The notes under the pieces: generated by a model
The model's input: only the letters and a program-made list of their open reading frames with translations
Told to the model about the DNA's origin: nothing
Database searches by the model: none
From: an uncultured bacterium
Lineage (GTDB): Bacteria > Planctomycetota > UBA1135 > GCA-002686595
Reading direction: 5' to 3'
Length of the DNA: 64,000 nt
Assembly: GCA_943787795.1 (NCBI GenBank)
Contig: CALSNU010000001.1
Location: 1-64,000, forward strand
In this document: in pieces, positions 9,406-58,471 of the stretch
How the letters are laid out: each line of letters begins with the position of its first letter
Numbering within the stretch: position 1 is the first letter of the stretch
Translations under genes and position numbers: made by a program

Positions 9406-9438
9406 GCGCGCGGCGCCCCCGAGCGGGGCGCCGCGCGC
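9406..9438. terminator. Perfect 14-bp GC-rich hairpin (terminator-like, weak U-tract)
   Basis: GCGCGCGGCGCCCC / GGGGCGCCGCGCGC inverted repeat downstream of the large gene. Confidence 0.45.
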
Positions 9439-9483
9439 TATCTTCTGCCCCGAGGCCGCCGCGGCAATCGCCCGGCTCCCCCC

Positions 9484-16428: not shown

Positions 16429-16711
16429 ACAGACCTGTCGCCCCTCCACGCTGGGGCCGGACTGGCGCGGTGGCACCGGGTGCGTGGTCTCGAGGCAAGG
16501 GGTCGCCTGGTTTCGAGGCAAGAACGGGCGCGAGCCTGCCGATGGTCCTCTCACCAGGGCGCTCGGTAGCCTGCCTTCAAGCCTCGATACCTGTGATGTT
16601 CAGGGCAGCACACCGTCGCCCTGGTGTACCCCGCACAAGGGTCGCGCCAGGGACTCACCCGGCTTCGACCGTCTTACAAGGCGTCGACGGATTCGCCTGG
16701 CGCTGACGGAC

Positions 16712-17215: not shown

Positions 17216-17222
17216 GAGGAGC

Positions 17223-19886: not shown

Positions 19887-20229
19887 AGGCCTCGTTGCAA
19901 GAATGTAACCGAGCGCGGCCGCTTGCCCCGCACTTGTAGGGGGCACCGTGCTCGGCCCCTCGCTGGACGTCCCGTGGGCTCCGAGCGGATTCGCTCCCCG
20001 CATGCCTCCTGGGTGCGCCCGCCCGACCCCTTCGAGTCGGTCCTCCACTTCTCGTCGGCGACCCCTTCTCGTCGGCCGCCCTGTCGGCGCGGTCCACCTG
20101 CCGAGCCAGCCCGCCCTGGGGGCGCGGACTTTTGAGGGCAGAGCGGACCTGCATGTCTTATTGTCACTCCAAGAGCCAACTCGCTGCCTCTCCGGACCTA
20201 TCCCCGGCGAGGAATCAGGCTCCTTCAAC

Positions 20230-41591: not shown

Positions 41592-41666
41592 GGTGGGCGT
41601 GGTAGGAGATCCTAGCCACACGGCCGGGGGGGCGGAGCGGCCCGTATCGTCAGGACTTGCCCCGCC

Positions 41667-41711
41667 TCCTGACCCGGGATTCCTGACCCTTGGGATTCCT
41701 GACCCTCGGGA
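41667..41711. repeat. Three direct repeats TCCTGACCC(NN)GGGA in a divergent promoter region
   Basis: Units start at 41667, 41681 and 41697. Confidence 0.7.
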
Positions 41712-41736
41712 CGGCTGCCAAGTCGGAGCTCCTACG

Positions 41737-42717
41737 ATGTCATTCATGAGACCCACACCCCTCGAGTCCCTGGCCCTCGCCGCGATCACCTGCGCCTCCT
41801 GCGCCAGCGTTGGTCCGCGCTCCGTCCCCGATGGAGCTGTCCCGAGGATGCTGGTAAGTGACGGTGGGCGGGGGTCGACCGCACCCTCACCGGGTGAGTG
41901 GGCCGCGTCCGTGGGCCCCTCGGTCGGTGCCCTCGATCGGGACGGCGCCGTGGTCTCTGGAAGCGCGACCCCCTGGTCGACCTTCGGCTTCGAGGCGGGG
42001 AGCGTCTCCTCGGCGATCGACAGCACGGTGCGGGTCGGGCTCGCGGGGGCAGGCCTGGGGCTCGACCTCGAAGATCTGCTCGGACTCAACAGCTCGAACA
42101 CGACCATCAAGGCCAAGGCCTTCTGGCGGTTCACGGAGAACCAGCGCCATCGGGTGGACCTCTCCTGGCTGGACCTCAACCGGCAAGGGAGCAAGACGGT
42201 CTCCCAGGACATCAACATCGGCAACGGCGAGGTGATCACCGCCGGCACCACCGCGACCACCAAGCTCGACCTGCGGCTCATCAGGGCTCAGTACAGCTAC
42301 TCGTTCTTCCAGGACGAGCGGGTCGACCTTGGCGTGTGCGGCAGCCTCTACGTGTTGCCCATCGACTTCGAGCTGGAGGCCACCGGGGTGTCGGATGCCT
42401 CGGACTCGTTCGGGGTGACCGCTCCGCTTCCCGCGGTGGGCCTGCGCTTCGACTTCGCCATCACCCCGCGCTGGTTGCTCCAAAGTGACCTGAACCTCTT
42501 CTATCTGGAGTTCGATGACTACAAGGGCGCCCTCACCAGCTGGTCGGGGGGCGTCGAGTACCGTCCGTGGGATCACTTCGCCGTCGGCCTTGGCCTGGAG
42601 ACGTTCTCGCTGGGCGTCGAGCAGAACGGCAGGACGGACGTTCCTGGCGTGAACGAGGCGGGCTCCATCGATCTGGGATACGTGGGCCTTGGCTTCTCTG
42701 TGAAGACGCGCTGGTGA
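41737..42717 (+). CDS. Outer-membrane beta-barrel protein
   Basis: LDLEDLLGL, HRVDLSW, YSYSFF, APLPAVG, alternating beta strands, terminal aromatic W. Confidence 0.75.
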   Translation: MSFMRPTPLESLALAAITCASCASVGPRSVPDGAVPRMLVSDGGRGSTAPSPGEWAASVGPSVGALDRDGAVVSGSATPWSTFGFEAGSVSSAIDSTVRVGLAGAGLGLDLEDLLGLNSSNTTIKAKAFWRFTENQRHRVDLSWLDLNRQGSKTVSQDINIGNGEVITAGTTATTKLDLRLIRAQYSYSFFQDERVDLGVCGSLYVLPIDFELEATGVSDASDSFGVTAPLPAVGLRFDFAITPRWLLQSDLNLFYLEFDDYKGALTSWSGGVEYRPWDHFAVGLGLETFSLGVEQNGRTDVPGVNEAGSIDLGYVGLGFSVKTRW

Positions 42718-42823
42718 GCGTGTCAGCCCGGTCCGCCGCGAGCCGGAGCGCGGCGTGATAGGTTGGCGACGGCGCCTTGGCTCAAGGCCGCCCTGATCCC
42801 CGACGGCTCCCACGCTGACCGCC

Positions 42824-43798
42824 ATGCTCCGAACCCTCCTTCTCTCCGCCGCGGTATGCGCGGCCCCGCTCTTCGCCCACGAGGGAGCTGAGGCTCCCAA
42901 GAAGCCCGTCCAGGTCTTCATCCTCGCGGGCCAGTCCAACATGGTCGGCGCGGGCGCGATGCGCTCCAACCCGGACCGCAACGGGGGCCAGGGGAGCCTG
43001 GAGTATCTGGTCACCGCCAAGGAGTCCAAGAAGCGGTGGGCCCACCTGGTGGACCGTCAGGGCGAGTGGGTCGCGAGAGACGACGTCTGGATCAACTACT
43101 TCGACCGCCACGGCGAGCTGGCCCCTGGCTACGGGGGGAACGAGGAGCAGATCGGCCCCGAGCTCGGCTTCGGGCACGCGGTCGGCGAGGGGTGCGAGGA
43201 GCAGGTCCTCCTGATCAAGGTCGCCTGGGGCGGCAAGAGCATCGGCAAGGACTTCCGGCCGCCCAGCGCCGGCGGAGAGGTCGGCCCCGAGTACACCAAG
43301 CTGTTCGAGGAGGTCCGCGCCGCCCTGGGCTCGCTCGAGGAGCGCTTCGAGGGCGACAAGGGGCAGGGCGTCGAGCTCGCTGGCATCGGTTGGCACCAGG
43401 GCTGGAACGACCGGGTGAACCAGGCCTTCAACGACGAGTACGAGAAGAACCTGGCCTGCTTCATCCGGGACGCGCGCAAGGAGCTGGAGGCCCCCGACCT
43501 GCCCTTCGTCATCGCGGAGACGGGCATGAGCGGTAACGAGGAGAAGCACCCCAGGGCGCTCTCGCTCATGCGGGCGCAGGCGAATGTCGCCGCGTACCCC
43601 GAGTTCAAGGGCAACGTCGCCTTCGTCGGGACCCGGGACTTCTACCGGCCCGGCGACCAGTCACCCTCGAACCAGGCCTACCACTGGAACAGCAACGCAG
43701 AGACGTACCTCCTCATCGGTGAGGGCATGGGAGAGGCCATGCTCGACCTCCTTCCGAAGTATCGGAAGAAGCGTGCCAAGGCGGCCCGCCGCCGCTGA
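42824..43798 (+). CDS. Sialate O-acetylesterase (SASA/SGNH) family carbohydrate esterase
   Basis: Signal peptide, ILAGQSNMVG, GPELGFG, IKVAWGGKS, WHQGWND, YHW. Confidence 0.88.
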   Translation: MLRTLLLSAAVCAAPLFAHEGAEAPKKPVQVFILAGQSNMVGAGAMRSNPDRNGGQGSLEYLVTAKESKKRWAHLVDRQGEWVARDDVWINYFDRHGELAPGYGGNEEQIGPELGFGHAVGEGCEEQVLLIKVAWGGKSIGKDFRPPSAGGEVGPEYTKLFEEVRAALGSLEERFEGDKGQGVELAGIGWHQGWNDRVNQAFNDEYEKNLACFIRDARKELEAPDLPFVIAETGMSGNEEKHPRALSLMRAQANVAAYPEFKGNVAFVGTRDFYRPGDQSPSNQAYHWNSNAETYLLIGEGMGEAMLDLLPKYRKKRAKAARRR

Positions 43799-43941: not shown

Positions 43942-46503
43942 TCAGGCGGGCGCCGCGTCGGCCATCTGTCGGGCGAGGTTTCGGACGGTGCGGGGCAAGA
44001 AACGCTGCCGGCGCGCTCGGTGGATCACGTGATAGGCCGTGAGCCGCGTCACGAGGAGCGCACGGCGTGCGTGGGCGGCATCGCGGACCCACGCCTCCGG
44101 ATCGAGGCGCACGCCGGCGGCGCGCTCGAGGGCGACGCGATGGGCCTCAACCCAGCGGTCCGGATCCTCCGGCCCCACAAAGGCGAGGAGCTCGACGAGA
44201 TCGCGCTGGGGGACGTCGAGGGTGGCGAGCTCCCAGTCATAGGCGACCAGACTGGGACCCGCAGCGGTCCTTCTGAAGCCCACGTTGCGGGGGTTGAAGT
44301 CCCCGTGGATGAGGGTTCGAGGGGTGCCGGAGGGGCCGTCTTGCAGCAGCCGGTCGAGGGCCTGGGGGAGGTCAGCGCTGCCCCACCTCCCGAAGTCATC
44401 CGAGGCGCCCGATGCGAGGGCGCGCCAGAGCGGGGCGAGCCGACAGAGCCGCTCCTGCGTCGGCGGCGCCCCGATCCACCGCTCGCTCTTCAGCGCCTCG
44501 GCGCGGCCCAGGTAGGCCGCGTGGATCGAGGCCAGGCCCTCCACGGCCGCCAAGAGGTGGCCCTCGGTCCAGTCCTCGGGGCGCTCCGCGGAGTCCATGA
44601 GCTCAAGGTCGCCGAGGTCCTCCATCAGGAGCCAGCGCCGTCCCCGTGCCTCGTCCACATGGGTGCCGAGGTGGCGCGGTCTGTGGGCGGCGAGAGCGGG
44701 GTCCGAGAGGAGCGCCGTCTCTCGTAGGTGAGCTCCGAGGAGTCCTGCCTCGAGCCCGTGGTCGCGCCAACATGCGCCCAGCTCCTCGCTCGCCATGGCG
44801 AACACCCGCGCGAGGACGCCGTGGAGCTCCTCGTCCTGTTGCCGGGCCTTGAGGACCGCGGGTCCGTTGGCCCCTCGCCAGCGCGAGAGTCCGCTGGCCG
44901 AACCGAACCTCCACGCGCCCAGCTCGGCGAGGATGCTGCTGCCCTCGAGGCGCTCCACTCCGAGATGGGTCGCGCCGATGAAGCGCTCCACGAAGGCGCG
45001 CTGCGCCGCGCGTTCGCTCGCCGTCTGTCCTTCGGGGCGGGCGAGGGGCGTGGAGGCTGTAGGTGGGGCATCGAGGTACCCCGAGCGCTCGAGGCCCTGG
45101 GTCCAACGTTCGAGCAGGCCCGTCGTGGGCTCCGGGCAGCGGTGGCCATGCTCTTCGAGCCAGCGAGCGCTGGCCCCCGAGTCCACGTGGGTTCGCCGAT
45201 GCTCCTCGTACTGCTGGGGGAGCGTGCAGGCGTGTTCGCCGCCTGGCCGGGACCGAAGGAATGGCAGCAGCGCCGTGAGCGCGTTCGTCGAGGGGGCGGC
45301 CTCAACCCGAGCCAGCCACTCGTCGTAGGGAACGAGTCGGAGGTCGTGCCCGTAGAGCGAGTGCCAGAGCACCACCTCGCGGAAGGGCCGGGGTCGAGGG
45401 CTCACCAGGTGGAGGGTCTCGCGGCCGTCGCTGCCCAGGGCCGTGCGCGCGGCCAGCGCGGCCGCGACGTGGTTCACCGGGACGGCGTCGACATTCCAGT
45501 CAAGGTCGGGCGCCAGGCCTAGCTGAATACAGCCCTTCATGAGCGCGGAGAGAAAGTCCCCGGGGTTGCCCGCCCCCGTGGTCGAGTCACCCGCGATGAG
45601 CGACGGTCGCGCGATCGTGACGGGCAGGCCCCGACGGCCGGCCTCGAGGACCAGCTCCTCTGCCACAGCCTTTCCCTTGGCATAGCCGAGGTCGAGCCCG
45701 GCGAGGTGCCCGAGGGGTTCGGCGCCCTCGTTCAGCTCGTCGACTCCGTCCCGGGCGTAGAGGACCGAGATGGAAGAGCAGAAGTGGAAGGCCTTCGGCC
45801 GGTGTTCGCACGCCAGCCGGAGCAGCTCGCGGGTCCCCTCGGCGTTGGACGCTCGGAGCCTCTCGTAGGGGGAGACCCAGTCCACCTTGGCGGCCAGGTG
45901 GAGCACGGCGTCGATCTCCTCGCTCAGTCGAGCCCACGTCAACGGGTCGAGGCCGAGCCGCGGCTCTTCGAGGTCGCCGCGCAGAACCTCGATCCGGTCC
46001 TCGGTGCCTTCGAGTCCCCTGGAGGACAGCGCGTCGAGCACGCGGGCGCGGTCGCCCCCCCGAGCGAGGCAGGTCACGCGAGCCTCGGTCTGCTGGAGGA
46101 GCTCGGCCAGGGCATGGGCGCCAAGGAAGCCCGTGGCGCCCGTCATGAGCACGTGCCGAGGAGGTCCCGCCCAGCCTTGCGAGGCAGCCGGCGTGATCTC
46201 GACAGGGAGGGTCGCGTCGGAGCTGGGGTCTGCATCGCTGGTCGCGGCCCCGAGAGTGAGCCGCCTGAGGGCCGCGCGGGGCGAGGGGTGCTCGTAGAGC
46301 AGCGTGTCGGGCACGTGCACCTCGAACCGCTGCCGGAGCTCCTCGGTGAGCTCGACGGCGGTGACCGAATCCAGGCCCAGCTCGAAGAGCGGCGCGTCGG
46401 GGTCGACGCTCTCGGCCGTGACGCCGAGGAGGTCGGCGATACGACTCACGAGCCAGGCGAGGTCCGCATCGTTGGCGCTGAGGTCGGGGAGTGCGAGGGT
46501 CAA
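43942..46503 (-). CDS. ACP + thioester reductase + APH/choline-kinase-like phosphotransferase fusion
   Basis: LGLDSVTAVEL phosphopantetheine site; MTGATGFLG, HLAAKVDW, YAKGK reductase motifs; LIHGDFNPRN and YDWELA kinase motifs; TTG start overlaps the FAAL stop. Confidence 0.9.
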   Translation of the reverse strand: MTLALPDLSANDADLAWLVSRIADLLGVTAESVDPDAPLFELGLDSVTAVELTEELRQRFEVHVPDTLLYEHPSPRAALRRLTLGAATSDADPSSDATLPVEITPAASQGWAGPPRHVLMTGATGFLGAHALAELLQQTEARVTCLARGGDRARVLDALSSRGLEGTEDRIEVLRGDLEEPRLGLDPLTWARLSEEIDAVLHLAAKVDWVSPYERLRASNAEGTRELLRLACEHRPKAFHFCSSISVLYARDGVDELNEGAEPLGHLAGLDLGYAKGKAVAEELVLEAGRRGLPVTIARPSLIAGDSTTGAGNPGDFLSALMKGCIQLGLAPDLDWNVDAVPVNHVAAALAARTALGSDGRETLHLVSPRPRPFREVVLWHSLYGHDLRLVPYDEWLARVEAAPSTNALTALLPFLRSRPGGEHACTLPQQYEEHRRTHVDSGASARWLEEHGHRCPEPTTGLLERWTQGLERSGYLDAPPTASTPLARPEGQTASERAAQRAFVERFIGATHLGVERLEGSSILAELGAWRFGSASGLSRWRGANGPAVLKARQQDEELHGVLARVFAMASEELGACWRDHGLEAGLLGAHLRETALLSDPALAAHRPRHLGTHVDEARGRRWLLMEDLGDLELMDSAERPEDWTEGHLLAAVEGLASIHAAYLGRAEALKSERWIGAPPTQERLCRLAPLWRALASGASDDFGRWGSADLPQALDRLLQDGPSGTPRTLIHGDFNPRNVGFRRTAAGPSLVAYDWELATLDVPQRDLVELLAFVGPEDPDRWVEAHRVALERAAGVRLDPEAWVRDAAHARRALLVTRLTAYHVIHRARRQRFLPRTVRNLARQMADAAPA

Positions 46504-48234
46504 GGCGCCGTGACCTCCGCGGGACGATCGGCGCGCAGGAGCGCGGCGCAGGCGTGGCGCTGGGTCTTCCCGGACGTCGTCTTCGGGAGCTTCCTCGCCG
46601 GTAGGAAGAGGAGCCTGGCGATCGGAGCCTCGTGATCCTTCGAGACCGCGGCGCGGATGGCGCGCTCGACCTCCCTGCGCGTCGGCTCGTCGCAGTCCTC
46701 CACCTCACAGACCAGTCCGACGCCCTCGACGGCGCCAGGGCGCGCGTTCCACGCGACGGCGGCCGCGCCCCCCCGGGCGTACAAGGGCGTGGGCGGCCTC
46801 GGCCGTGCGCTCGATGTCCTGGGGGTAGAGCTTGCGGCCCCGGAGGATGATCAGGTCCTTGATCCTCCCGGTGACGAAGAGCTCCCCGCCCTCGAGGGCG
46901 CCGAGGTCGCCGGTACGGAGCCAGGGTCCGCGACCGTCCGTGAGGTACGCCCCGAAGGTCCGCTCGTTCTCCTGCTCCCGTCCCCAATAGCCGTCGGCCG
47001 CGCTGGGTCCCTTGACCCAGATCTCGCCCACGGCGCCCACAGGCAGGGCCTGCGAGGTCATGGGGTCTGCGATCACGAGCTCCTGCTCGGCGACCGGCGT
47101 CCCGCACGAGACGAGCGTCCTCGACCGTCCGTGGCTCGCGGCGCCGCGCAGCAGGTCTTCGCGGTCCAGCGCGGCGGCGTCCGCCTCCAGAAGGCGCGGC
47201 TGGACGTTCCTCCGGCTGGAGGAGACCAGCAGGGTGTTCTCCGCCAGCCCATACGCCGGGAAGAAGGTCTCGGGTTGGAAGCCAGCGCCAGCGAAGGCCT
47301 CGCTGAAGCGCTCGATGGTGTCGGCGCGCACGGGCTCTGCGCCGTTGGCGGCCATGGTCCAGCGGCTCAGGTCGAGGGTGGCCCGCTCCTCCGGCGTGGT
47401 CCGGCGGACGCACAGCTGATAGCCGAAGTCGGGGGACGCTGCGTTGGTGCCGCCGAGCCGGCTCAGGGCCTCCAGCCAGGTCATTGGCCGTGCCAGGAAC
47501 GCGGCTGGAGACATGAGGTAGCCAGGCTGACGGCGGAAGAGCGGGTGGAGCACGCCTTCGATCAGGCCCATGTCGTGCTGTACCGGGAGCCAGGAGACGC
47601 CGGGCCCCTGGTCCGGGCCGCCGCACATCTCGTAGATGCTCGCGAGGTTGGCGAGCAGGTTGGCGTGGGTCACGCGGACTCCCCTGGGACTGGACGTGGA
47701 CCCCGAGGTGTACTGGAGGAAGGCGAGGCTGTCCGCCTTGGCGGAGGGCCGCTCTGCCGCTGGGAGCTCCGCAGCCGCGGGGAGCCCGTCGACCGCGAGG
47801 CGTTCCAGCGCGCCGAACGGACTCGACGTCTCCGCGTCCAGGGCCGCGACATGTCCCAGGAGGGCGGCTGTGGACAGCACGATCGAGGGCGTGCAGTCGG
47901 CGGCCACGGCGGCCAGCCGCTCGAGGCCCCGTGGACCCAGGGAGGGAGAGGGCGGGAAGACCGGTGCTGCGATGACGCCGGCGCGCAGGCAGCCGAAGAA
48001 GGCGGCGAGGAAGTCGAGGCCGGGGGCGAAGAGCAGCAGGGCGCGATCCCCAGGGCGCAGCCGACCGGCGAGGGCCGCGGCGACGCTCGCGCTGCGGGCC
48101 TCGAGCTCCGCGTAGGTCCAGCTCGCCTCGAGCTCGCCGTCCCTCCCGAGGAAGCCGTAGGCGAGCGCGTCGCCGGCGTCCTGGGCGCGGCTGCTCAGGA
48201 GGTCGACGAGCGAATCGTGTCGGGAGTGCTTCAT
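46500..48234 (-). CDS. Fatty acyl-AMP ligase (FAAL), frameshifted in the C7 run at 46768-46774
   Basis: LQYTSGSTSSPRGV, SWLPVQHDMGLI, PAYGLAENTL, FAAL-type insertion, LRTGDLG, GRIKDLII; LPKTTSGKTQR lies in the shifted frame. Confidence 0.9.
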
Positions 48235-49034
48235 GCTCGGCTCCGTTGCCTCGATGTCTTCCGTCGCTGGTGGACGGCGTTCAGGGCGTCGAACACGGCG
48301 GCTCGTTGCTCGTCGAGCGCTTCGACCGTCCAGCCGCCGGTGTCGATGGTGGGGAGGACCTCGACCGTCACCGTGCCAGGGCGTACGTCGAGGCCCAGGC
48401 CAGGGTCCACGTCAGGGGGGACCTCGATGTAGAAGGGGACGATGGGCGCCTGGAGGTCGGTCGCCATATGGAAGGCTCCCCTGTTGAAGGCGCCGAGCTC
48501 GCCGGTGGTGACTCGCATTCCCTCCGGGGAGAGGTAGACGGACTCCCCCGTGCGCTTGAGGGTGGCCGCAGCGCCGGCGAAGATCCTCTTGCGCGCCTCG
48601 GGGTACTCCTGGGGCACGGTCCAGAAGATCCCCGTCACGTAACCGATCAGCCCGATCGGCAGGATCTTGCGCAGGAAGCCGGAGAGGAAGAACCGGGTCC
48701 CGGGCATGCCGAGCGCGATCAGCACGAACATGTCCACCGAGGACGTGTGGTTCGACACGTAGACCGTCTGCGTGCGCGGGAACGGCAGGGCCCCGGCGAC
48801 CTCGAGGCGGACGCCCCAGAGGGCGAGCACCGCGCGCCCGATCCAGGTGCTCAGGGCGAGGTACATGCGCCGGAACTGGAAGAGCGTCAGGACAGCGACC
48901 AGGAAGAGCAGGAGGCTCCCAAGGGAGAGCGTCGTGAGGACGACCGCTGAGAGACACCAGAGGCGCAGGGTCGCCCGAAGCGAGCGCTCCTCGTCGCCGC
49001 GGGCCGAGCGGCCGACGCCGAGGAAGGTGCTCAT
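48231..49034 (-). CDS. Lysophospholipid acyltransferase (PlsC family)
   Basis: N-terminal TM, SNHTSSVD (HX4D), SPEGMR, GAFHMA..APIVP; ATGA overlaps at both ends. Confidence 0.88.
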   Translation of the reverse strand: MSTFLGVGRSARGDEERSLRATLRLWCLSAVVLTTLSLGSLLLFLVAVLTLFQFRRMYLALSTWIGRAVLALWGVRLEVAGALPFPRTQTVYVSNHTSSVDMFVLIALGMPGTRFFLSGFLRKILPIGLIGYVTGIFWTVPQEYPEARKRIFAGAAATLKRTGESVYLSPEGMRVTTGELGAFNRGAFHMATDLQAPIVPFYIEVPPDVDPGLGLDVRPGTVTVEVLPTIDTGGWTVEALDEQRAAVFDALNAVHQRRKTSRQRSRA

Positions 49035-50053
49035 GCGGGCCTCCGGCAGACCACGGTCTGCATGGCGAGGTTGTTCCTGCGGGCGAGCATCAGCCACGGG
49101 CTGACGAGCGCCTGGCCGAGCAGGTAGCGGCCGAGCTCCTCGCGGGGCACGAAGCCGCGACCGTTCAGCTGTCCGAACCGCCACCCCGCATAGATGTAGA
49201 ACCAGGGCGGGAAGGCGCCGTAGGGGAGATGCGTCTCGACCTCAAGACCGGCGCGCTCCACGGCGCGGAGCAGCTGCTCGCGCGAGAAGAGCACCGTGTG
49301 CTGGGGCGCCTGGAGACCCGGCCAGCGGTCGCCGTACCAGCGCGCGGTGCGGCTGTCGAGGCGCGGCACCTCGATGACCATCTGGCCGCCGGGCCGCAGA
49401 ACCTCAAGGCAGCGCTCGAGCGTCGCGGGCGGGTCGTAGTCGTGCTCGAGGTAGTGCCACATGGTCACGAGGTCCATGGACCCCGGCTCGATGGCGGCCT
49501 CGCTGAAGAGCCCCCGGATGAACCGGTTGTGCTCGAACGCAGGGGCATCGGAGAGGTCCTTGAAGTCCACGCCGATCCCGGAGCAGCCGTGCCGCCGGCG
49601 GACCTCCTCCAGGAAGGTCCCCGCCGCGCAGCCGATGTCGAGCACCCGGGACCCGGCGTCGAGCGGCACGAAGCGGTCGACGAGCTTGCGCTTGTCGCGG
49701 TCGTGCTTGCCCATCACCCACCGGTAGAAGGGGGTCAGCACGCCGAAGTCCGAGCTCTTGCGGTGAGCGATATAGGTGTCGTCGTACCACTCCGCGATCC
49801 CGTCCGCGGGGACGCGCGGGTCCTGGTAGGCGAGCCCGCAGTCATCGCAGGTGTGGAAGGTGAAGCGGCCGGGCTTGCCCCCGAGGTCGTCCTTGGCCTC
49901 GGTGAGGAACGTCTTGTTCGAGCTCCCGCAGGCGTAGCAGTTGACCGGCTCGAGGTCGTGGTGTCCCACCAGCGGCGGGGCCGCGACGGCGGGGACGGGG
50001 GCCGTGGCGGTGGCCGCTTCGGTCGCCTGTTGGTCGGGGTCGGTGAGGGTCAT
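49031..50053 (-). CDS. Class I SAM-dependent methyltransferase with N-terminal zinc ribbon
   Basis: CYAC...CDDCGLAYQDPR, VLDIGCAAG, MWHYLEH, LRPGG. Confidence 0.88.
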   Translation of the reverse strand: MTLTDPDQQATEAATATAPVPAVAAPPLVGHHDLEPVNCYACGSSNKTFLTEAKDDLGGKPGRFTFHTCDDCGLAYQDPRVPADGIAEWYDDTYIAHRKSSDFGVLTPFYRWVMGKHDRDKRKLVDRFVPLDAGSRVLDIGCAAGTFLEEVRRRHGCSGIGVDFKDLSDAPAFEHNRFIRGLFSEAAIEPGSMDLVTMWHYLEHDYDPPATLERCLEVLRPGGQMVIEVPRLDSRTARWYGDRWPGLQAPQHTVLFSREQLLRAVERAGLEVETHLPYGAFPPWFYIYAGWRFGQLNGRGFVPREELGRYLLGQALVSPWLMLARRNNLAMQTVVCRRPA

Positions 50054-50637
50054 CGAAGCTCCGGGTCAGTGGCTCGCTCGTGGAGGACGAGCGCGGCGTA
50101 CAGCAGCGCCATGGCGGCGACGCGTGGGGGGGTATCGGCGCCTTCGGTGCCGAGCAGGGCTGCGAGGGCGGGGTACTTGGCGAGGAGGATGAGGGCGTGG
50201 ATCCAGGGGCCCTGGCGGGGCATCGCATACCAGCTGCCCAGGGCGATCAGGAGCGCCACGAGCCCGGCGGCCCGGGCGGGTGCGAGGCCATGGAGCGCGA
50301 CGAGCCCGAACGCGAGGCCGCCGCAGAGCGCCGCCACATGGGGGCTCGTGGAGGCGGCGCGCACGAGGCTGCGCTCGGGGTGGCGGAGGCGGTCGGGCGC
50401 GCGGTCCACGAGGTCGTCGAGCAGCCGCAGGCAGACCACCAGCAGGTAGGCGAGGCCGAGCCGGAGGGCGGCGTCCGTCGCACCAGGCCACGGCGCGCCC
50501 GCCAGGCCAGCGCCGACGATCGCCGTCGCGAGGAGGGGGAAGCGCCACGCTCCGGAGCCAGAGAGCACGCGCTCGGAGAACCATGCGGCGGGTCCTGAGG
50601 CTGCACGGTGCGGACTACTCGTCGACGATACGGACAT
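50050..50637 (-). CDS. Minimal UbiA-superfamily prenyl/alkyl-transferase-like membrane protein
   Basis: RLLDDLVDRAPDRLRHPERSL matches the UbiA DDxxDxxxD..PxR motif; several TM segments; only 195 aa. Confidence 0.65.
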   Translation of the reverse strand: MSVSSTSSPHRAASGPAAWFSERVLSGSGAWRFPLLATAIVGAGLAGAPWPGATDAALRLGLAYLLVVCLRLLDDLVDRAPDRLRHPERSLVRAASTSPHVAALCGGLAFGLVALHGLAPARAAGLVALLIALGSWYAMPRQGPWIHALILLAKYPALAALLGTEGADTPPRVAAMALLYAALVLHERATDPELR

Positions 50638-53150
50638 GACCGCGGCCTCCGTCCACTCTGATCTTCTGGCCGGTCTCAAGGGCCCCGGTGACCCCGGGGA
50701 CCCCCACCACGGTGGGCAGTCCGTACTCTCGGGCGAGGATCGCGCCGTGGGAGAGGAGGCCGCCGCGCTCCACGACGAGCCCGGAGATCAGGGGGAACAG
50801 GGGCGCCCATCCCGGATCGGTCTGTCGCGTGACGAGGATGTCGCCGGGCGCGACCTCCCCGGCGTCCGCGAGGTCGGTCAGGACCACGGCGCGCCCCGTG
50901 ATGACCCCGGCGCACGCGCCCGCCCCGTCGAGGCGCGAGGTGTCCCCGGCCTCCTCCTCGCTGCCGATCCACACCTCACCCTCGGGGAGCATGAAGGCGC
51001 TCGGTGGACGGACGTCGGCCTGTCGGGTGTGTTCCTCGCGGCGCACGGCGGCGACTCGAGTCGCGCTGGACGGCTGGAGCGCGGTGCCCGCGGCGAGGTC
51101 ACAGAGCTCCTCAAGGGAGAAGTACACCGCGTCATCTGCGTGCTCCACCATTCCCTCTCGGACCATGGCGGCGCCCAGCGCGAGGGCGACGTCCCGCAGC
51201 CGGCGGTAGAGCAGCGCCTGCTTGCCGCGCGCGCGCTCACGCATGGTGACCGACCGGCCGCAGGCCCGGGCGATGGGACCGAGCACGAGGCCCCGCCAGC
51301 CGCCGAGCTCGCGGCGCAGCCGCGCGACCGCGCGCAGGCGCTCGGCGGCTCGGACAGCCGCGACCTCGGCGGGGGCTGGGCCCTCGGCGTCGAGGTACGC
51401 GCGAAGCAGGGCCAGGACGCGGGACGGCTCCTCCTGGTAGCTCGGGACCGTGAACACGAGCTCACCGGAGCACCGGTGGCCGTGGTTCTCGAGCCACGCC
51501 TCGAAGGCGGCGCGGAAGCCCGCGTGTCTGGGTCTCTCCCGGATCGCCGCCAGGGCGACGGCGTCGTCGCCGCTGCGCAGGAGGGCCTCGAGCTCGCCGT
51601 CGGGCGCCGCGTGGACGAGGCGCGCCAGATCCCAAAGCCCGGCCGCGGGAGCGGCGCTCACCACGTCGAGGCCCTGGAGCAGCTCGCCGGCGGCAGCGCG
51701 CGGATCTCCGCTCACCGGGGAGAGCACCTTGAGGAGCAGGCCGTGGGTGATCATGGCGCTCGCGTCCGCCAGCCCAGCGTCGGTCCACTGGTGGCGACGA
51801 ATGCGCGTGAATCCCCCCACGCGGCCGCCGAGCTCCACGCGGTCGAGCTCGGCGAGGACCTCTCTGGAGGTGGATCGTGCGTAGGCGTCGACCCTCGACT
51901 CGAAGCGCTCGACGCCCCGCTCCAGGCCAAGCCAGGCCTGCGTCATACGAAACGCCGTGCCGCAGAGCCGCAGGGCGCCTCGCAGGCGCCCCTCCGGTGC
52001 CAGGCGATCGGCCTCTGGGAAGCCCTCTGCGCCTGTGAAGGCGTTGAAGGACGAGGTCAGGAACGCCCCGCCCGGCGCCTCCCGCATGACCGCGTGCAGG
52101 TTGGTCAGGTGGTAGTACAGCCGGCCCTCGTGGGCGCCGACGAGGCGCTGCAGGCGGGGCTCCGAGCGCTGCGAGCGCCGTCTCCGAGACCCCGATCACC
52201 CGAGCGAGGCCGCGGAAGTAGTGGGTGTAGCCAGTGGCAGCGACCGAGTACTGGAGCGGCGTGATCGGCGTGGGGAAGTTCTCGTCCACGTTGGCGTTGG
52301 TCCAGGCGACCTTCGGTCGGGAGCTTGCGACCGCCGTGATGGGGCGTGACTGGACCACGTGCAGCTCACCGTCCCGGGCGAGGACCCACTCCACGTCCTG
52401 CTCGGAGCCCCCGGTGCGCCGCGCCTGGGCCGCGAGGCGTGCGAGCTTGTCCCTGGCGCCGAGCAGCGCGGCGGGGTCGACCTCGTCCTCGAGCCGCTGC
52501 AGTTCAGTGACCGCTCCGGCCGCGTCGAGGGAGAGCCGCCCGGGGGTGACGCGCCCGGAGACCAGGTCCTCGCCCGGCCCGTGGACGTACTCCACCAGCG
52601 TCCGCTTCGCGCTGGGCTCGGCGGGGTCACAGGTGAAGAGGACCCCGGCGAAGTGGGCGCGGATCTGGCGCTGGACGAGCACGGCCAGCCCGCCGAGCGG
52701 GCGGCCCCTCCGCTCCTCATAGGCCCGCACGCGCTCGGCGGCGCGGGCGCCCCAGCACTCCCTTAGCGCACGCTCGAGTTGGTCCGCCCCGTCCACATCG
52801 GCGATGGACTCCAACATGCCCGCGAAGGAGGCGTCCGCGGAGTCCTCCCCGAGCCCAGAGCTGCGCACGATCAGCGTGCCGTCGAGATGTCGGCAGGCGT
52901 CGAGCAGCGCGACCCGGAGCGGCTCGGGGAGCGGGGTGCGGCGGATGCCGTCGGCGTCCATCTCTTCGAGCCCGGTGGCCTCGAGGTACTCCCGTCGGAA
53001 GGTGTCGCTGACCACGACGCCGACCGGGACCGGGAGGCCGGTCGCGGCCAGCGCCGCCTGGCTCGCGGCCTTGGCGCCGAAGAGCGCGGGGTCGAGGGCG
53101 GCTTCGAGCTTGACGAAGGGCGCCGCCTCGGCGGTGGAGTGGAGGCCCAT
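50615..53150 (-). CDS. PEP-utilising dikinase (rifampin phosphotransferase/PEP synthase-like), frameshifted near 52162
   Basis: GAKA, VRSSGLGEDSADASFAG, QDVEW, QSRPIT ATP-grasp domain; TDPGW...GGLLSHGAILAREYGLP phospho-His domain; deleting one base joins the two ORFs (ALEPRLQRLVGAHEGRLYYHLTN). Confidence 0.88.
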
Positions 53151-53734
53151 CAGGCGGGGCGCGCCTTGAAGCCCCGGCGCCAGAGGAGGACGTTGAAGAG
53201 CCAGTGGACGACCGGTCCCGCGAGCAGGACCACGAGCCACGTGCCGGCGGGGAGGCCGAAGGTGAGGTGCACTGCGAGGAGCAGGCCGAGGATGGAGTCG
53301 AGGCGGTCGGCGAGGAAGCAGGCGGTGGCAGCGAGCCGGCCGCGGGGGGCGCCGCCGGGGGCCACGTCCAGCTGCCGCTTCACGAACGAGTTGGGCAGCT
53401 CGCCCAGCATGAAGCCGAGCCCGCCGACGAGCCCGAGCAGCGAGTAGCCCGCGGGGCTGAGGTCCCAGAGGTGCTCGGCGGCTGGCGTGACGGCCGTGAG
53501 CACGACGCCGAGGGCGAGGCAGGTGAGCCCCGACGCGGGCACCATCACCACGAGGCCGCGGAGCGTCTTGTTGGCGCCGAACAGGCGCCGCCCGCGGAAG
53601 CGGAGGCCGGCGTCGAGGGGGATCCGGAGGGACTCGAGGGCGGAGCCGGGGAGCCAGCGGGTCTGGAGCCAGCCGGAGAGAGAGAAGGCCGTGAGCAGGA
53701 ACAGCCCGCGGGCCAGGGCGTCGGGTTCGATCAC
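53150..53734 (-). CDS. CDP-archaeol synthase (CarS)-like CTP-transferase
   Basis: PLDAG...GRRLFGANKTLRG, GELPNSFVKRQLDVAPG, ADRLDS; GTGA overlap with the desaturase stop. Confidence 0.85.
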   Translation of the reverse strand: MIEPDALARGLFLLTAFSLSGWLQTRWLPGSALESLRIPLDAGLRFRGRRLFGANKTLRGLVVMVPASGLTCLALGVVLTAVTPAAEHLWDLSPAGYSLLGLVGGLGFMLGELPNSFVKRQLDVAPGGAPRGRLAATACFLADRLDSILGLLLAVHLTFGLPAGTWLVVLLAGPVVHWLFNVLLWRRGFKARPA

Positions 53735-54705
53735 AGCTGGAACTCCGTGGTGCTCGAGTTCTCGAAGAGGAAGCGCTCGCCGGAGAGGCGCTTGGCGCCG
53801 CGCAGGAACTGCCAGGCGCTGACCCGACGCGGCGGCACCCACGGCACCTGGTGGAGGCGATAGCCGGGGACCTGCGGGTAGGCGTGGTGCCGCTCGTGTT
53901 CGCCCGTGCCGCAGAGGAGCCCGAGGCTGATCCACGGGGGGAAGGCCACGGAGCGGGTGTACTCGGTCTGATCGGTCCCGAGCCTCGGGCGGACGGGGTC
54001 CGCGCCCGCGGTGGGCATGGGGATGTGGGTGTGCTGGCTGAGGATCAGCGGGTCCTGGAAGGCGAGGCCGAGGACGAGCCCGGGGCCGACGAGCCAGAGC
54101 AGCTGCAGGGGACCGACCGCAGCGGCGAGAGCGGCGTAGGCCAGGAGGTGGACCAGCGCGGCGCGCCGCGCGGCTGGCCCCCTTCCCGGGTGGAATTGCT
54201 CCAGGCGACGGACGTTCCAGAAGTTGTTCCACCGGTAGGCGATCGAGAACAGCGGGAGCCAGGTGCGCCACGCGAGGTTGGCGAGCCGGCGCTCCAGCCG
54301 GCCGCGGGTCCGCGGGGCCAGGGACTCGGTGGTCGAGTCCCGGTCCTGCCAGCCCGTCCAGCGGTGGTGCCCCGCGTGGACGAGGCGCCAGGTGGAGAAG
54401 GGGATCAGCGCGATGAATCCCGCCACGTGACCCGCGACGCGGTTCAGGGAACGAGAGGGGAAGAGGTTTCCGTGCCCGGCCTCGTGGAGCAGGCAGAACC
54501 ACTGCAGGCTCCCGAGCCCGATCAGCAGCTGCCCGGTGGCCCAGAGGAGGAGCGATCCCTGGGCAGCTAGCGCCACGCCACCGCCGACCAGCGCGAGGCC
54601 GCTGGCGACGAACGCGGCCCCGGCAGCGCTGACGGGACGGAGTCCGTCGACGGTCTGAGGGTCAGGGATGAGTGCAGGCGAGGAGGCAGGATCCTTGATC
54701 GGCAT
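53731..54705 (-). CDS. Membrane fatty-acid desaturase family protein
   Basis: His boxes HEAGH, HAGHH and HERHH; TM segments. Confidence 0.88.
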   Translation of the reverse strand: MPIKDPASSPALIPDPQTVDGLRPVSAAGAAFVASGLALVGGGVALAAQGSLLLWATGQLLIGLGSLQWFCLLHEAGHGNLFPSRSLNRVAGHVAGFIALIPFSTWRLVHAGHHRWTGWQDRDSTTESLAPRTRGRLERRLANLAWRTWLPLFSIAYRWNNFWNVRRLEQFHPGRGPAARRAALVHLLAYAALAAAVGPLQLLWLVGPGLVLGLAFQDPLILSQHTHIPMPTAGADPVRPRLGTDQTEYTRSVAFPPWISLGLLCGTGEHERHHAYPQVPGYRLHQVPWVPPRRVSAWQFLRGAKRLSGERFLFENSSTTEFQL

Positions 54706-54724
54706 CACGACCACACCATGCGCT

Positions 54725-56941
54725 TCAGCCGGCGCTGATCCGAGGGTGTTCCCGCTGATCGACGGACCAAGCGAGGCTTATCGACCGGACGCCGTGCGCC
54801 GGACGCCGTGCGCTGGGCAGCGGACGGAGCTGCTCGAGCTCAAGGTCGGCAACAGGGAGCACTCCTGGGGTGCTGCGGCCGGCAGAGGGCCTCCGAGGAG
54901 TGCCCGCCATGTGCCGGCCTGGTTCGCCTGCCCCGTGTTCGCCTGCCCCGTGTTCGCCTGCCCCGTGTTCGCCTGCACTGTGCTCGCCTGCACTGTGCTC
55001 GCCTGCGCCGTGCTTGCTTGCGCCGGGGGCAGCGCCCGGGAGGGGTCGCCTCCGGGACCGTCCGCGCCCGTCAGTCGACGGTGTCCGCCGACGGCCCGTC
55101 GGGGGCCCGTCGGGGGCCGGCGCCGCAGGGGCGCCCTCGGGGTCCTCGCCTCGGCCCCTGACGCGAATGCGTGCCACGTAGATCGCGGTGCGCAGCTCAT
55201 GGCTCGAGTAGTACGAGAGGAGCAGGTCGTCCCCGTCGAGCACCGCGCCCGGATAGCTCGTGTCTCCCCCTGAGGGGAGCACCAGGAGGCTTTGGAACGC
55301 GCCGTCCAGGGTCACCTCTCCCACGGCGGTCCGGGGCGTACCGTCCCGGTAGACGCGGCCGGCGGCGAGCATGCGCCCATCGTCGAGGACGATCAGCTCC
55401 GGGCCGCCGAGGTGCTCGGGGAGGTCCACCCAGGTCCACTCTTCGAAGGGGGGCGAGGCGTGGCCGATGCGCGCGGTGGCGCTGAAGGGGTCCCGCCGAA
55501 CGAGGGCGACCAGTCGGCCGTCCGGGAGGGCGCGGAGCGTGGCCTCGTTGGGCTGGCCTGGATGATCGAAGGAGGCGACGAGGTCGTACCGGACGCCGCC
55601 CTCGGTGCGCACTAGGTGGTGGCCCGGGGGGCTCGCTTGCGGCTGATACACGACGCCGAAGCCGGCCTTCTTGGCCCAGGTCACGCGCCATAGCCAGTCG
55701 TCCTTGGACGCGATCTTCGCGTCCAGCGTGGCGGCTCGCATTCGAGTCGGGAACTCGGCCCCACGCCCCCAGAAGGCGACCCTCGGCGCCCGCCCCTGGA
55801 GCACGCCGTCGAGGTACCTGGAGCCGCCCGCGAGGATCATGAGCTCCCCGCCAGGGGTCACGCTCACCTTCGGGTCGCGCAGGTCCACGCCGGGCTCCTC
55901 AAGGAGGCCCCGTGAGCTCCAGGTCAGGCCGTCCCGCGAGGTGAGCACCCGCACCCTCCCGTCGGCGCCGTTCACGTGCCCGTCGCCCTCTCGGAAGGTC
56001 AGGACGAGGTCCTCGCCGAAGCGGCAGAGGTCGGTGAAGGCCTGGTGGGGGGCGTCGTCCCACGCGCGCTGCACGTCGAGCAGCTCCAGCGTGAGGAGGC
56101 CGGCCTCGTCGCTGGCGGGGCGCGGGTGGGCCTCGAAGAACCTCGCCGCGAGCCCGTGGAAGTCAGGGTGCCTGCGATGGCCGCCGCCGTGCTCGAAGAG
56201 CAGGACGTCGCCGTGGCTGCCGCTCGGGTAGCGGGTGACCCGCTCGTCGACGGCCCAGGGGCGGCCCGCCTCACAGGCGCGCTGCGCGCGGAGCTTGCGA
56301 AGAGCGTCGTCCTGCCAGGCCCACTGCACCACGCGATCCCCCCGGCAGCCCGCGTGGAAGACCGGCCGCGGGGGCAGGGTCGCACCGCCCCGGAGCAGCC
56401 GTGACGCGGCCGATGACGGCGCCACCGAGGCGAGCACGTCGCCGCGGGTGGCGAGGAGCAGGTAGGTGAAGCCGCCACCGTTGGAGTGTCCGGTGGCGTG
56501 CACCCGGTCGGGGTCCACGCGGAAGTCCACCCTCGCCCGGGCAAGGAGGGCATCAAAGAAGGCGAGGTCCCGGTCGCCCTCGTCGCCCGGCGCGTGCTGC
56601 CAGCCGGAGAGCTTGCCCTCCGGGTCCGTGAACCCGGCGGTGGCGAGGCCCTGGGGGTAGATGACCACCGCTTCTGGCCACGCCCTGTGGAGGGGAGCCC
56701 CCCGCGCGGTCGCCCGAGCGCGGCCGCCGTGGCCGTGGAAGGCGAAGACCAGCGGTGCGGCGGGCCCGCGCTCATCCTCGCCACGAAGGGCCTCGTCCGG
56801 CGCGAAGACGAGCGCCTCACGAGCGACCCCGTCCACCTCGAGGGTCCAGCGCTCCTGCGCGCTCGCTTCAGCCGAGCCGAGCACGGCGGCCACGAGGACC
56901 AGGGCCTGAGCGGCGCGTCGGAGGATGCAGAGGCCGCTCAA
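54725..56941 (-). CDS. Secreted fusion: PHB-depolymerase/esterase-like hydrolase + sialidase (BNR)-like propeller; true 3' end uncertain
   Basis: Signal peptide; FHGHGG, GHSNGG; AFTDL, DLRDPK, WLWRVTW, PSGGDTSYPG; TTG start just after the upstream stop. Confidence 0.75.
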   Translation of the reverse strand: MSGLCILRRAAQALVLVAAVLGSAEASAQERWTLEVDGVAREALVFAPDEALRGEDERGPAAPLVFAFHGHGGRARATARGAPLHRAWPEAVVIYPQGLATAGFTDPEGKLSGWQHAPGDEGDRDLAFFDALLARARVDFRVDPDRVHATGHSNGGGFTYLLLATRGDVLASVAPSSAASRLLRGGATLPPRPVFHAGCRGDRVVQWAWQDDALRKLRAQRACEAGRPWAVDERVTRYPSGSHGDVLLFEHGGGHRRHPDFHGLAARFFEAHPRPASDEAGLLTLELLDVQRAWDDAPHQAFTDLCRFGEDLVLTFREGDGHVNGADGRVRVLTSRDGLTWSSRGLLEEPGVDLRDPKVSVTPGGELMILAGGSRYLDGVLQGRAPRVAFWGRGAEFPTRMRAATLDAKIASKDDWLWRVTWAKKAGFGVVYQPQASPPGHHLVRTEGGVRYDLVASFDHPGQPNEATLRALPDGRLVALVRRDPFSATARIGHASPPFEEWTWVDLPEHLGGPELIVLDDGRMLAAGRVYRDGTPRTAVGEVTLDGAFQSLLVLPSGGDTSYPGAVLDGDDLLLSYYSSHELRTAIYVARIRVRGRGEDPEGAPAAPAPDGPPTGRRRTPSTDGRGRSRRRPLPGAAPGASKHGAGEHSAGEHSAGEHGAGEHGAGEHGAGEPGRHMAGTPRRPSAGRSTPGVLPVADLELEQLRPLPSARRPAHGVRSISLAWSVDQREHPRISAG
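54922..55025. repeat. 15-bp tandem repeat GTTCGCCTGCCCCGT-like x7
   Basis: Three identical units grading into GCTCGCCTGCACTGT variants. Confidence 0.88.
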
Positions 56942-56942
56942 C

Positions 56943-58427: not shown

Positions 58428-58471
58428 CGGAGGGGCGGGCACGGGAATGCTGGGCACGGGGATGCCGGGGA

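Follow-up and report, generated by a model that had tools for sequence, protein, structure and literature searches.

A conserved eight-gene bacterial cassette joining fatty-acid activation to CarS-like, dikinase, and UbiA-fold enzymes, and its possible role in ether phospholipid synthesis

Gene content and integrity of the operon

The window analyzed here is a 64,000-nucleotide stretch (positions 1 to 64,000 of contig CALSNU010000001.1, assembly GCA_943787795.1) from an uncultured member of the Planctomycetota, and our subject is an operon within it that brings together fatty-acid-activating enzymes, a CarS-like membrane protein, a dikinase-type phosphotransferase (here termed PEPk), and a UbiA-fold protein. 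The source is a metagenome-assembled genome (MAG) of 8 contigs and 85% completeness, and the window has a G+C content of ~70%. Eight open frames occupy the minus strand from 43942 to 54714, with stop and start codons overlapping at every junction. In 5′-to-3′ order, they encode the following proteins (aa, amino acids; CTP, cytidine triphosphate; SAM, S-adenosylmethionine; ACP, acyl carrier protein):

53731..54714, minus strand: FA_desaturase-family membrane enzyme, 327 aa (PF00487, 100 bits)
53150..53731, minus strand: CarS-like CTP-dependent membrane enzyme, 193 aa (PF01864, 43.4 bits; cut-off 22)
50615..53150, minus strand: dikinase-type phosphotransferase PEPk, ~844 aa (PPDK_N, 131.3 bits; PEP-utilizers, 83.7 bits)
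50050..50637, minus strand: minimal UbiA-fold protein, 195 aa (PF01040, 26.5 bits; below the cut-off of 34.2)
49031..50053, minus strand: class I SAM methyltransferase, 340 aa (Methyltransf_23, 101.6 bits)
48231..49034, minus strand: PlsC-type acyltransferase, 267 aa (PF01553, 57.8 bits; cut-off 23)
46500..48234, minus strand: fatty acyl-AMP ligase (FAAL), ~581 aa (AMP-binding, 194.7 bits)
43942..46503, minus strand: ACP, thioester reductase, and APH-fold kinase in one protein, 853 aa (PP-binding, 73 bits; NAD_binding_4, 192.6 bits; APH, 42.8 bits)

The original prediction, made from the letters of the sequence, had proposed these eight genes in this order and had listed their junctions; Pfam and NCBIfam recover all of the genes at these coordinates, and each junction is real. 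The overlaps read GTGA at 53731 (desaturase stop and CarS-like start), TGATG at 53150, ATGA at 50050, 49031, and 48231, and TTGA at 46500, and the start of the UbiA-like gene overlaps the end of the PEPk gene by 23 bases (50615-50637). All eight window proteins carry the catalytic motifs of their families, as these motifs are generally defined.

Two of the frames are broken in the window, the FAAL frame in a run of seven G residues (~46768-46790) and the PEPk frame near 52162, in each case by one extra base. The base at 46768 is missing from contigs of all four marine metagenome runs compared (four studies, region 46500-52400), and that at 52162 is missing from contigs of all three runs covering the place. 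In two MAGs of the same genus (L005/L006), which are ~85% identical to the window in nucleotide sequence over the region, FAAL and PEPk are each encoded in one open frame. Both frameshifts are single-base errors of this assembly, and the operon is to be read as intact because they are absent from the metagenome runs and from the same-genus MAGs; the same observations led us to reject a reading of FAAL and PEPk as pseudogenes. Hence, the original call for a frame-corrected operon was sound, and natural intact copies exist.

A 12-base insertion at window position 49999, within the N-terminal portion of the methyltransferase, is present in one (X3) of the four metagenome runs and looks like in-frame population variation.

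Conservation and distribution across bacteria

Database relatives of the CarS-like protein number 1643 at an E value of 1e-5 or better, most of them ~194 residues long and ~55% identical. A scan of one genome per species for CarS-like genes gave 186 encoding stretches, the best 80 of which were taken with 10-kb flanks. Nine pieces of the window operon were run against these 80 loci by tblastn, and the UbiA-like gene was sought with a profile:

CarS-like piece: 80/80 loci (tblastn)
PEPk piece: 78/80 loci (tblastn)
Desaturase piece: 75/80 loci (tblastn)
Methyltransferase piece: 68/80 loci (tblastn)
PlsC piece: 66/80 loci (tblastn)
FAAL piece: 60/80 loci (tblastn)
ACP-reductase piece: 59/80 loci (tblastn)
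APH kinase piece: 54/80 loci (tblastn)
UbiA-like gene: 71/80 loci, the remaining 9 ending before its position at contig ends (profile search)

All eight genes are present at 52 of the 80 loci, 48 of which are colinear and 4 rearranged (in two, both myxobacterial, the desaturase lies on the opposite strand; in one, PlsC stands at the end; and one is a coordinate artefact); 18 more are cut solely by contig ends, and 10 are variants. Colinear recurrence of the nine query pieces at 48 of 80 loci lies far beyond chance. Conservation elsewhere and the lack of a matching characterized cluster had been named beforehand among the tests of the original prediction: the gene set is kept, and no such cluster turned up. 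Indeed, we found no description of this gene set, nor of a dikinase–UbiA pair, in the full-text literature searched, a body that leaves most subscription journals outside its scope.

By the phylum labels of the submitters, the 80 loci belong to Acidobacteriota (33), Planctomycetota (17), Gemmatimonadota (16), Myxococcota (4), Verrucomicrobiota (2), Pseudomonadota (2), and Omnitrophota (1), plus 5 that are unlabelled, such that the cassette is common to bacteria of at least seven phyla. Within the lineage of the window organism, its occurrence is patchy: of 17 other genomes in the genus, 3 carry the CarS-like gene, and a further 23 from the family and order gave none; across the phylum, a sample of 401 genomes gave strong matches to the UbiA-like profile (E value below 1e-30) in 3. 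A FastTree phylogeny of 62 PEPk sequences (16 other PEPk-bearing loci were left out as short, broken, or truncated) requires 10 changes of phylum label against a minimum of 6, with Planctomycetota in two places, Pyrinomonadaceae inside a Gemmatimonadota-rich clade, and the window's genus on a long branch of unsure placement. The cassette is an accessory one, not part of core lipid metabolism, with vertical descent within clades and occasional transfer between them.

Two genomes hold two cassette copies each. In one, a Gemmatimonadaceae contig of 39 kb, the copies (L015 and L016) lie head to head, and the UbiA-like match of one copy is weak (23 bits); in the other, both copies (L057 and L058) belong to one MAG.

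The PEPk dikinase

PEPk is built of an ATP-grasp domain (PPDK_N), a central domain of no assigned specificity, and a swivelling His domain, in which the His motif GGLLSHGAILAR is present; Pfam reports no third domain, and the C-terminal phosphoenolpyruvate (PEP)/pyruvate-binding barrel is not detected by it. The closest solved relative is the rifampin phosphotransferase (RPH) of Listeria (5FBS/5HV1, E value of 4e-48). NCBIfam likewise reports a likeness to RedH, PigC, and RPH, although the models for PEP synthase, RPH, RedH, and PigC all score far below their cut-offs (e.g., 232 versus 883). From its sequence, PEPk is best classed as a dikinase-type phosphotransferase for a non-pyruvate substrate and not as a PEP synthase. 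RPH, PigC/RedH, and phenylphosphate synthase dikinases phosphorylate hydroxyl or carbonyl oxygens of non-pyruvate substrates, and they share with PEPk the PPDK_N ATP-grasp and swivelling His domains without a PEP/pyruvate barrel. PEPk differs from RPH and PigC/RedH in missing their equivalog thresholds widely, in a central substrate domain unrelated to theirs in name, and in its constant pairing with a UbiA-fold gene, for which the literature searched gives no parallel among RPH/PigC/RedH-type enzymes.

The UbiA-fold protein and its pairing with PEPk

UbiA enzymes bind Mg-diphosphate through two motifs, one of the form (N/D)DxxDxxxD following helix 2 and another, (D/E)xxxD, following helix 6. 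The window protein has DDLVDRAPD at residues 74-82 and ERATD at 187-191, conforming to the patterns DDxxDxxxD and ExxxD, and on these two acidic motifs it is tentatively assigned to the UbiA superfamily. In an alignment of 28 sequences, R23, R71, D74, D75, D82, R89, Y137, K154, Y155, and E187 are invariant, and D78 and D191 are conserved in at least 90%. Longer relatives match PF01040 more fully, at 28.4 bits over profile positions 5-228 for a nine-helix protein (P0134) and at 53.6 bits for the full-length relative in L097.

Structure prediction (AF2, i.e., AlphaFold) yields a confident model of the window protein (mean predicted local distance difference test score [pLDDT], 92.8). Foldseek ranks archaeal digeranylgeranylglyceryl phosphate (DGGGP) synthases (7BPU and 6M31) and UbiA homologues first, if weakly (E values of 0.07-0.4, TM score of ~0.6). 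VIA-align also places the DGGGP synthase 7BPU first (Z of 13.2, 168 residues aligned, chain residues 7-177 of 279), followed by the membrane phosphoribosyltransferase 8J8J (Z of 11.8, 171 residues), UbiA of A. pernix (11.4), MoeN5 (11.2), and soluble prenyl synthases (~10). The match to 7BPU covers the entire model, with both acidic motifs at the positions usual for UbiA enzymes. An ESM Atlas search with the UbiA-like protein returned solely clusters named "hypothetical" or "putative UbiA," and a predicted complex of the CarS-like (A1) and UbiA-like (A2) proteins scored 0.26 against a mark of 0.32, which is evidence neither way.

The rank of 8J8J, a mycobacterial-type enzyme, raises the question of phosphoribosyl transfer, in which the UbiA-fold protein would use phosphoribosyl pyrophosphate (PRPP) as the donor and an alkyl phosphate, such as the reductase-kinase of the cassette would provide, as the acceptor, to start a lipid-linked sugar phosphate in place of an ether lipid. 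We regard this as very improbable: the Z values do not tell one UbiA fold from another, the cassette has no sugar-modifying or glycosyltransferase genes, PEPk would go unexplained, and the PlsC, CarS-like, and PssA-like genes (the last described below) indicate phospholipid assembly.

Across 1.84 billion database representatives, the UbiA-like family has 401 members at an E value of 1e-30 or better, 783 at 1e-10, and 1599 at 1e-3. Of the 150 best representatives, 142 allowed measurement of the tail past the second acidic motif:

Tail over 120 residues: 2 representatives
Tail of 51-120 residues: 78 representatives (three extra hydrophobic helices in the 3 long sequences read)
Tail of 16-50 residues: 50 representatives (one extra helix in the 2 sequences read)
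Tail of 15 residues or fewer: 12 representatives (window-like)

By its model, then, the window protein has six helices, fewer than the seven or nine found elsewhere in the family, and represents its shortest form, a minimal one that the original prediction had overlooked. We rejected a reading as a truncated UbiA pseudogene: the short form is conserved, its fold is confident, and both motifs are kept.

Within the 401-genome phylum sample (with the window and G006 counted), PEPk adjoins the UbiA or UbiA-like gene at 10 of the 12 places found with the UbiA-like profile, and the two exceptions are on contigs of only 4.1 and 3.0 kb. The pair is an undescribed invariant core, around which CarS, the reductase-kinase, and the acyltransferases are arranged as modules; it is regarded as the core because it persists in variants of the cassette and in another cluster type (see below). 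The original prediction had listed both genes without singling out the pair.

A search for longer forms of the UbiA-like protein turned up a single fusion, a database protein of 485 residues (P0121) that joins the UbiA-like domain to the neighboring methyltransferase; it may be a real fusion or an artefact of gene calling across an ATGA overlap.

Activating, reducing, and tailoring enzymes

The top NCBIfam matches of the FAAL are FAAL families (E values of 1e-113 to 1e-97, with FadD32 at 1.7e-107), all below their cut-offs, the window copy having been scored in two pieces. The thioester reductase exceeds the cut-off of TIGR01746 (288.4 bits versus 213.35) and has the motifs GATGFLG and YAKGK, which assign it to the thioester reductases; its product would leave as an aldehyde or an alcohol. 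The same 853-aa protein carries GLDSV in its carrier domain and HGDFNPRN and DWE in its kinase domain, where K72, H253, D255, N260, and D276 are invariant in 24 sequences. Although a sequence search of the kinase domain against the PDB gave nothing at an E value of 0.01 or better, a fold search with its model (pLDDT, 88.1) matched corramycin kinase, APH (aminoglycoside kinases), 25-hydroxysteroid kinase, and choline kinases. The fusion of reductase and kinase is conserved.

In the CarS-like protein, the motifs NKTLRG, SFVKR, and DRLDS fall in invariant columns. The family profile (A1) matches the solved CarS of A. pernix (5GUF, E value of 1e-7, residues 37-193) and no other PDB chain at an E value of 1 or better, and the score against the CarS equivalog NF003114 (NCBIfam) is 54.9 bits versus a cut-off of 148; on this evidence, the window protein belongs to the CarS family (PF01864), not at the level of the archaeal CarS equivalog. 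Related dolichol and phytol kinases are CTP-dependent lipid-alcohol kinases, and by analogy the CarS-like protein may have this alternative activity. An ordinary CdsA is encoded elsewhere in the genome (PF01148, 111 bits). CarS and CdsA discriminate their lipid substrates, CarS preferring isoprenoid lipids over phosphatidate, as set out in a review of archaeal lipids (PMC9385802).

The desaturase-family protein has the histidine boxes HEAGH, HAGHH, and HERHH and by sequence could be a desaturase or a hydroxylase; its sequence matches nothing meaningful in the PDB. The methyltransferase combines an N-terminal CxxC...CxxC element (CYAC and CDDC) with the motif VLDIGCAAG and matches only generic class I methyltransferases in the PDB. 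PlsC has HTSSVD (the HX4D motif) and PEG; its acceptor is uncertain because it does not reach the cut-off of TIGR00530 (50.6 versus 102.95).

Natural variants of the cassette

A ninth gene lies directly upstream of the cassette at 11 loci, ten of them in Planctomycetota (mostly Pirellulales/Pirellulaceae) and one in Omnitrophota. It is PssA-like, with PF01066 in both of the 2 copies run against Pfam and a resemblance to (archaetidyl)serine synthases, below cut-off, in the 3 run against NCBIfam. Apart from this gene, the conserved extra genes upstream amount to lineage-specific synteny within the 10-kb flanks (the region downstream of the last gene is mostly outside them). A minimal variant is that of Arhodomonas sp. 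AD133 (L086), which has five genes (CarS-like, PEPk, UbiA-like, reductase-kinase, and a cytidine diphosphate [CDP]-alcohol phosphatidyltransferase); FAAL, PlsC, methyltransferase, and desaturase are absent from this locus, and no carrier domain was detected on its reductase-kinase. A CDP-activated phospholipid product, as originally predicted, is supported because PssA-like genes (at the 11 loci) and, in Arhodomonas, a CDP-alcohol transferase adjoin the cassette.

The Arhodomonas variant, without an acyltransferase, and the reductase-kinase fusion, which points to an alkyl phosphate, would also suit a phospholipid free of glycerol. Its backbone would be the fatty alcohol, or a long-chain diol formed through hydroxylation by the desaturase-family enzyme; the kinase would make an alkyl-1-phosphate, PlsC would acylate the second hydroxyl, the CarS-like enzyme would produce a CDP-alkanol or CDP-diol lipid, and a transferase would add the head group, with PEPk and UbiA acting on something else. 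Long-chain 1,2-diol phospholipids do exist in Thermomicrobium, and no cassette examined has a glycerol-phosphate gene. The proposal nonetheless gives no role to the invariant pair, no Chloroflexota carrier is among the best 80 of the 186 relatives, and, although PF00487 includes hydroxylases, nothing here shows hydroxylase activity. A glycerol-free product is thus distinctly unlikely.

Other loci carry a shortened cassette: four in Planctomycetota (L051, L067, L076, and L077) and L104 retain the desaturase, CarS, PEPk, UbiA-like, methyltransferase, and PlsC genes, with a second acyltransferase between CarS and PEPk in L104.

Two of these loci have further peculiarities. In L076 (a Planctomycetaceae MAG), positions 8133-9914 hold a 593-residue frame in which an acyltransferase domain is fused to the cassette desaturase. 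In L051 (a Pirellulales MAG), a second PEPk-like gene and a class-III aminotransferase fusion (positions 16088-20582) lie on the opposite strand, directly after the shortened cassette.

A second type of cluster, found at L096, L097, L098, L100, and L102 (genomes G395, G160, G310, G249, and G246), has full-length UbiA proteins of 274-331 residues, which are weaker relatives of the UbiA-like protein, beside a PEPk homologue of 29-33% identity. Its order is an AMP-binding enzyme, then the full-length UbiA and PEPk, then DUF3419 and PAP2; the neighbors include an enzyme of the 3-hydroxy-3-methylglutaryl coenzyme A (HMG-CoA) reductase family and a P450 (both in L097), DUF3419, PAP2 phosphatases, and an MMPL transporter or AfsA.

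The AfsA, P450, and MMPL genes beside these related pairs, together with the patchy distribution described above (3 of 17 genomes in the genus and none of the 23 in the family and order for the CarS-like gene; strong UbiA-like matches in 3 of 401 genomes of the phylum), could be taken to mean that the cassette makes a diffusible or signalling lipid, or a secondary metabolite, of low abundance instead of a bulk membrane lipid. Such a product is quite improbable given that membrane phospholipid assembly is where CarS-like, PlsC, and PssA-like enzymes typically act and that neither a regulator nor an exporter is conserved alongside the cassette.

A candidate pathway to ether phospholipids

Taken as a whole, the operon is very probably a functional lipid-assembly cassette with a CDP-activated or phospholipid-type product. 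That the PEPk–UbiA pair forms an ether from a diphosphate donor seems to us to fall only a little short of an even chance. The identification of that donor as the fatty alkyl chain derived from the reductase is tentative, and we are similarly doubtful about the broadest proposal, an undescribed, fatty-acid-based route to ether phospholipids, present in many phyla, that mirrors the archaeal pathway of DGGGP synthase and CarS.

The route would run in six steps. (i) The FAAL would adenylate a fatty acid and load it onto the carrier domain, from which the thioester reductase would free a fatty alcohol or aldehyde. (ii) The APH-fold kinase and PEPk would phosphorylate the lipid alcohol to a monophosphate and on to a diphosphate; PEPk might instead transfer a pyrophosphoryl group in one step. 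(iii) The UbiA-fold protein, binding Mg-diphosphate via its two acidic motifs, would transfer the hydrocarbon to a hydroxyl of an acceptor of the glycerol-phosphate type, forming an ether bond. (iv) PlsC would acylate the remaining hydroxyl. (v) The CarS-like enzyme would activate the lipid phosphate with CTP, a task that, for this substrate, the ordinary CdsA apparently leaves undone, after which CDP-alcohol transferases (encoded beside the cassette in some lineages) would add the head group. (vi) The desaturase-family enzyme and the methyltransferase would tailor the chains or the head group. Steps i and iv to vi follow established chemistry of the families, whereas we infer the phosphorylations of step ii and the O-alkylation of step iii. 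The sequence from fatty alcohol through alkyl phosphate and alkyl diphosphate to UbiA-catalyzed O-alkylation is plausible; this scheme gains weight because the dikinase and UbiA genes travel together, because the kinase is fused to the reductase, because the second cluster type pairs another acid-activating enzyme (in one case together with a reductase-family enzyme) with PEPk and UbiA, and because CDP-alcohol transferases adjoin the cassette.

Several observations weigh against this scheme. Seven loci (the five shortened ones named above, L095, and L099) have no FAAL, ACP-reductase, or kinase in the fetched DNA, and L095 and L099, which read desaturase–PEPk–UbiA-like–methyltransferase–PlsC, are also without CarS. 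Searches of the whole genomes of L076 and L077, whose completeness is not established, found no reductase-kinase homologue, the best NAD_binding_4 match having an E value of 1e-15, a level that all 14 control genomes reach too. The pair is therefore not strictly dependent on the reductase of the cluster, and a strict alkyl route is weakened, since these variants keep PEPk and UbiA without FAAL, reductase, or kinase. There are three candidate phosphotransfer enzymes (APH, PEPk, and CarS-like) for two phosphorylations, and neither the window cluster nor any cassette examined has a glycerol-phosphate gene. As for the UbiA-like protein, its PF01040 match (26.5 bits versus the cut-off of 34.2) spans profile positions 1-149 of 250, the chain ends 4 residues past the second motif, which leaves a six-helix form without helices 7-9, and the Z values are only moderately specific for helical bundles and do not single out DGGGP synthase. 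Known UbiA enzymes use allylic prenyl diphosphates or PRPP, and we know of none with a saturated alkyl diphosphate as its donor; speculatively, the desaturase at the head of the cassette might give an allylic alkenyl phosphate, which would remove this last objection. Finally, everything beyond the domain assignments is our reading of sequences. What stood of the original interpretation is thus the gene content and the coupled operon; the CDP-activated end product gained support, and the strict alkyl route lost ground to the seven loci.

The shortened loci would be accounted for by a hybrid isoprenoid-acyl phospholipid, in which the UbiA-fold protein would act like DGGGP synthase on a housekeeping prenyl diphosphate. 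PEPk would make or recycle the donor from a prenol or prenyl phosphate, PlsC would add the acyl chain, the FAAL-reductase-kinase would contribute an optional extra moiety, and the CarS-like enzyme would be needed since a bulky isoprenoid lipid would be a poor substrate for CdsA. The best fold matches agree with it, being the DGGGP synthases 7BPU and 6M31 and other prenyl-diphosphate enzymes, as do the stated preference of CarS for isoprenoid lipids over phosphatidate (PMC9385802) and the gene of the HMG-CoA reductase family beside the UbiA–PEPk pair in L097. Against it, the cluster has no prenyl synthase and no geranylgeranylglyceryl phosphate (GGGP) synthase, as originally noted, and a search of the 85%-complete genome for a GGGP synthase of the PcrB type (PF01884) gave nothing; a geranylgeranyl diphosphate synthase and a glycerol-1-phosphate dehydrogenase of its own were likewise not seen in the cluster, no search having been aimed at them. 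Furthermore, the conserved FAAL-ACP-reductase-kinase module, complete at 52 of 80 loci, would be left without a role. The hybrid does rely on known chemistry of the UbiA family, but to our knowledge no dikinase acts on prenols. On balance, we consider an isoprenoid donor unlikely and return to the fatty-acid-based ether route for comparison with known systems.

Comparison with known systems

A close bacterial counterpart is the elb operon of Myxococcus xanthus, whose ElbD protein, as described in a review, comprises acyl-activating, carrier, reductase, and AGPAT-like domains, the ether-forming step being left unresolved (PMC9131029). Compared by this published domain description, the FAAL, ACP, reductase, and PlsC of the cassette reproduce the domain set of ElbD, a correspondence that the original prediction had missed, and both systems start from a fatty acid. 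In contrast to ElbD, the cassette domains are split over three genes, stand in another order (PlsC, FAAL, ACP-reductase), and include a kinase on the reductase; moreover, the cassette adds the CarS-like, PEPk, UbiA-fold, methyltransferase, and desaturase genes and has no counterpart of ElbB (HAD) or of ElbE/ElbA (NAD epimerase family). A FAAL search of two myxobacterial carrier genomes returned too many FAAL paralogues to name an ElbD orthologue. In elb-like clusters of sponge symbionts, as described in a preprint, the neighbors include acyltransferases, diacylglycerol kinases, and CDP-alcohol transferases, and the section describing them does not mention CarS, a dikinase, or UbiA (10.64898/2026.06.23.733905).

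With the archaeal pathway of DGGGP synthase and CarS, the cassette has in common the joint encoding of a UbiA-fold transferase and a CTP-dependent enzyme of the CarS family. It differs in that its carriers are bacterial, fatty-acid enzymes are linked to it, no GGGP synthase was found, and the UbiA-like protein of this genus has six helices. The cassette is thus neither an elb operon nor the archaeal pathway.

A further parallel is the salvage of phytol in plants, in which the kinases VTE5 and VTE6 and the UbiA-type phytyltransferase VTE2 act in turn, one of the enzymes being a CTP-dependent membrane protein of the CdsA/CarS clan. The conversion of a lipid alcohol to a phosphate and a diphosphate, followed by UbiA-type transfer, is the logic proposed for the cassette, whose kinases would differ in being of the APH fold and the dikinase type, whose alcohol would come from a thioester reductase, and whose acceptor would probably be glycerol phosphate and not homogentisate.

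Soils and oceans widely contain non-isoprenoid ether lipids, which serve as environmental proxies; their bacterial sources and the ether-forming step are known only in part. The cassette occurs in groups that dominate soils and oceans (Acidobacteriota, Gemmatimonadota, Planctomycetota, and Myxococcota), and the window organism itself was detected in marine metagenome runs of 12 studies. Its combination of CarS-family and UbiA-fold enzymes, which are usually treated as archaeal, with a bacterial fatty-acid context bears on the "lipid divide." If the proposal is true, the dikinase and UbiA-fold proteins would together form a module of general use, so far undescribed, that makes transferable diphosphates from lipid alcohols. 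For experiments, the cassette offers a clonable unit of eight genes, a minimal five-gene variant in an apparently cultured isolate (Arhodomonas sp. AD133), and a new pair of enzymes in the dikinase and UbiA-fold proteins.

Genes flanking the operon in the window

The genes on either side of the operon (40299-43798 and 56943-58457) look unrelated to lipid synthesis and encode an Omp85-family protein, a SASA-family esterase, and a pyrroloquinoline quinone (PQQ)-type beta-propeller protein. Upstream of the desaturase gene, the two same-genus MAGs lack the stretch at window positions 54785-56950 and align with the sequence to either side of it. Most of an 827-codon minus-strand frame without a Pfam match (54725-57208) lies inside it, and a 15-base tandem repeat of 6-7 copies (54922-55025) encodes a GEH(G/S)A repeat in this frame.

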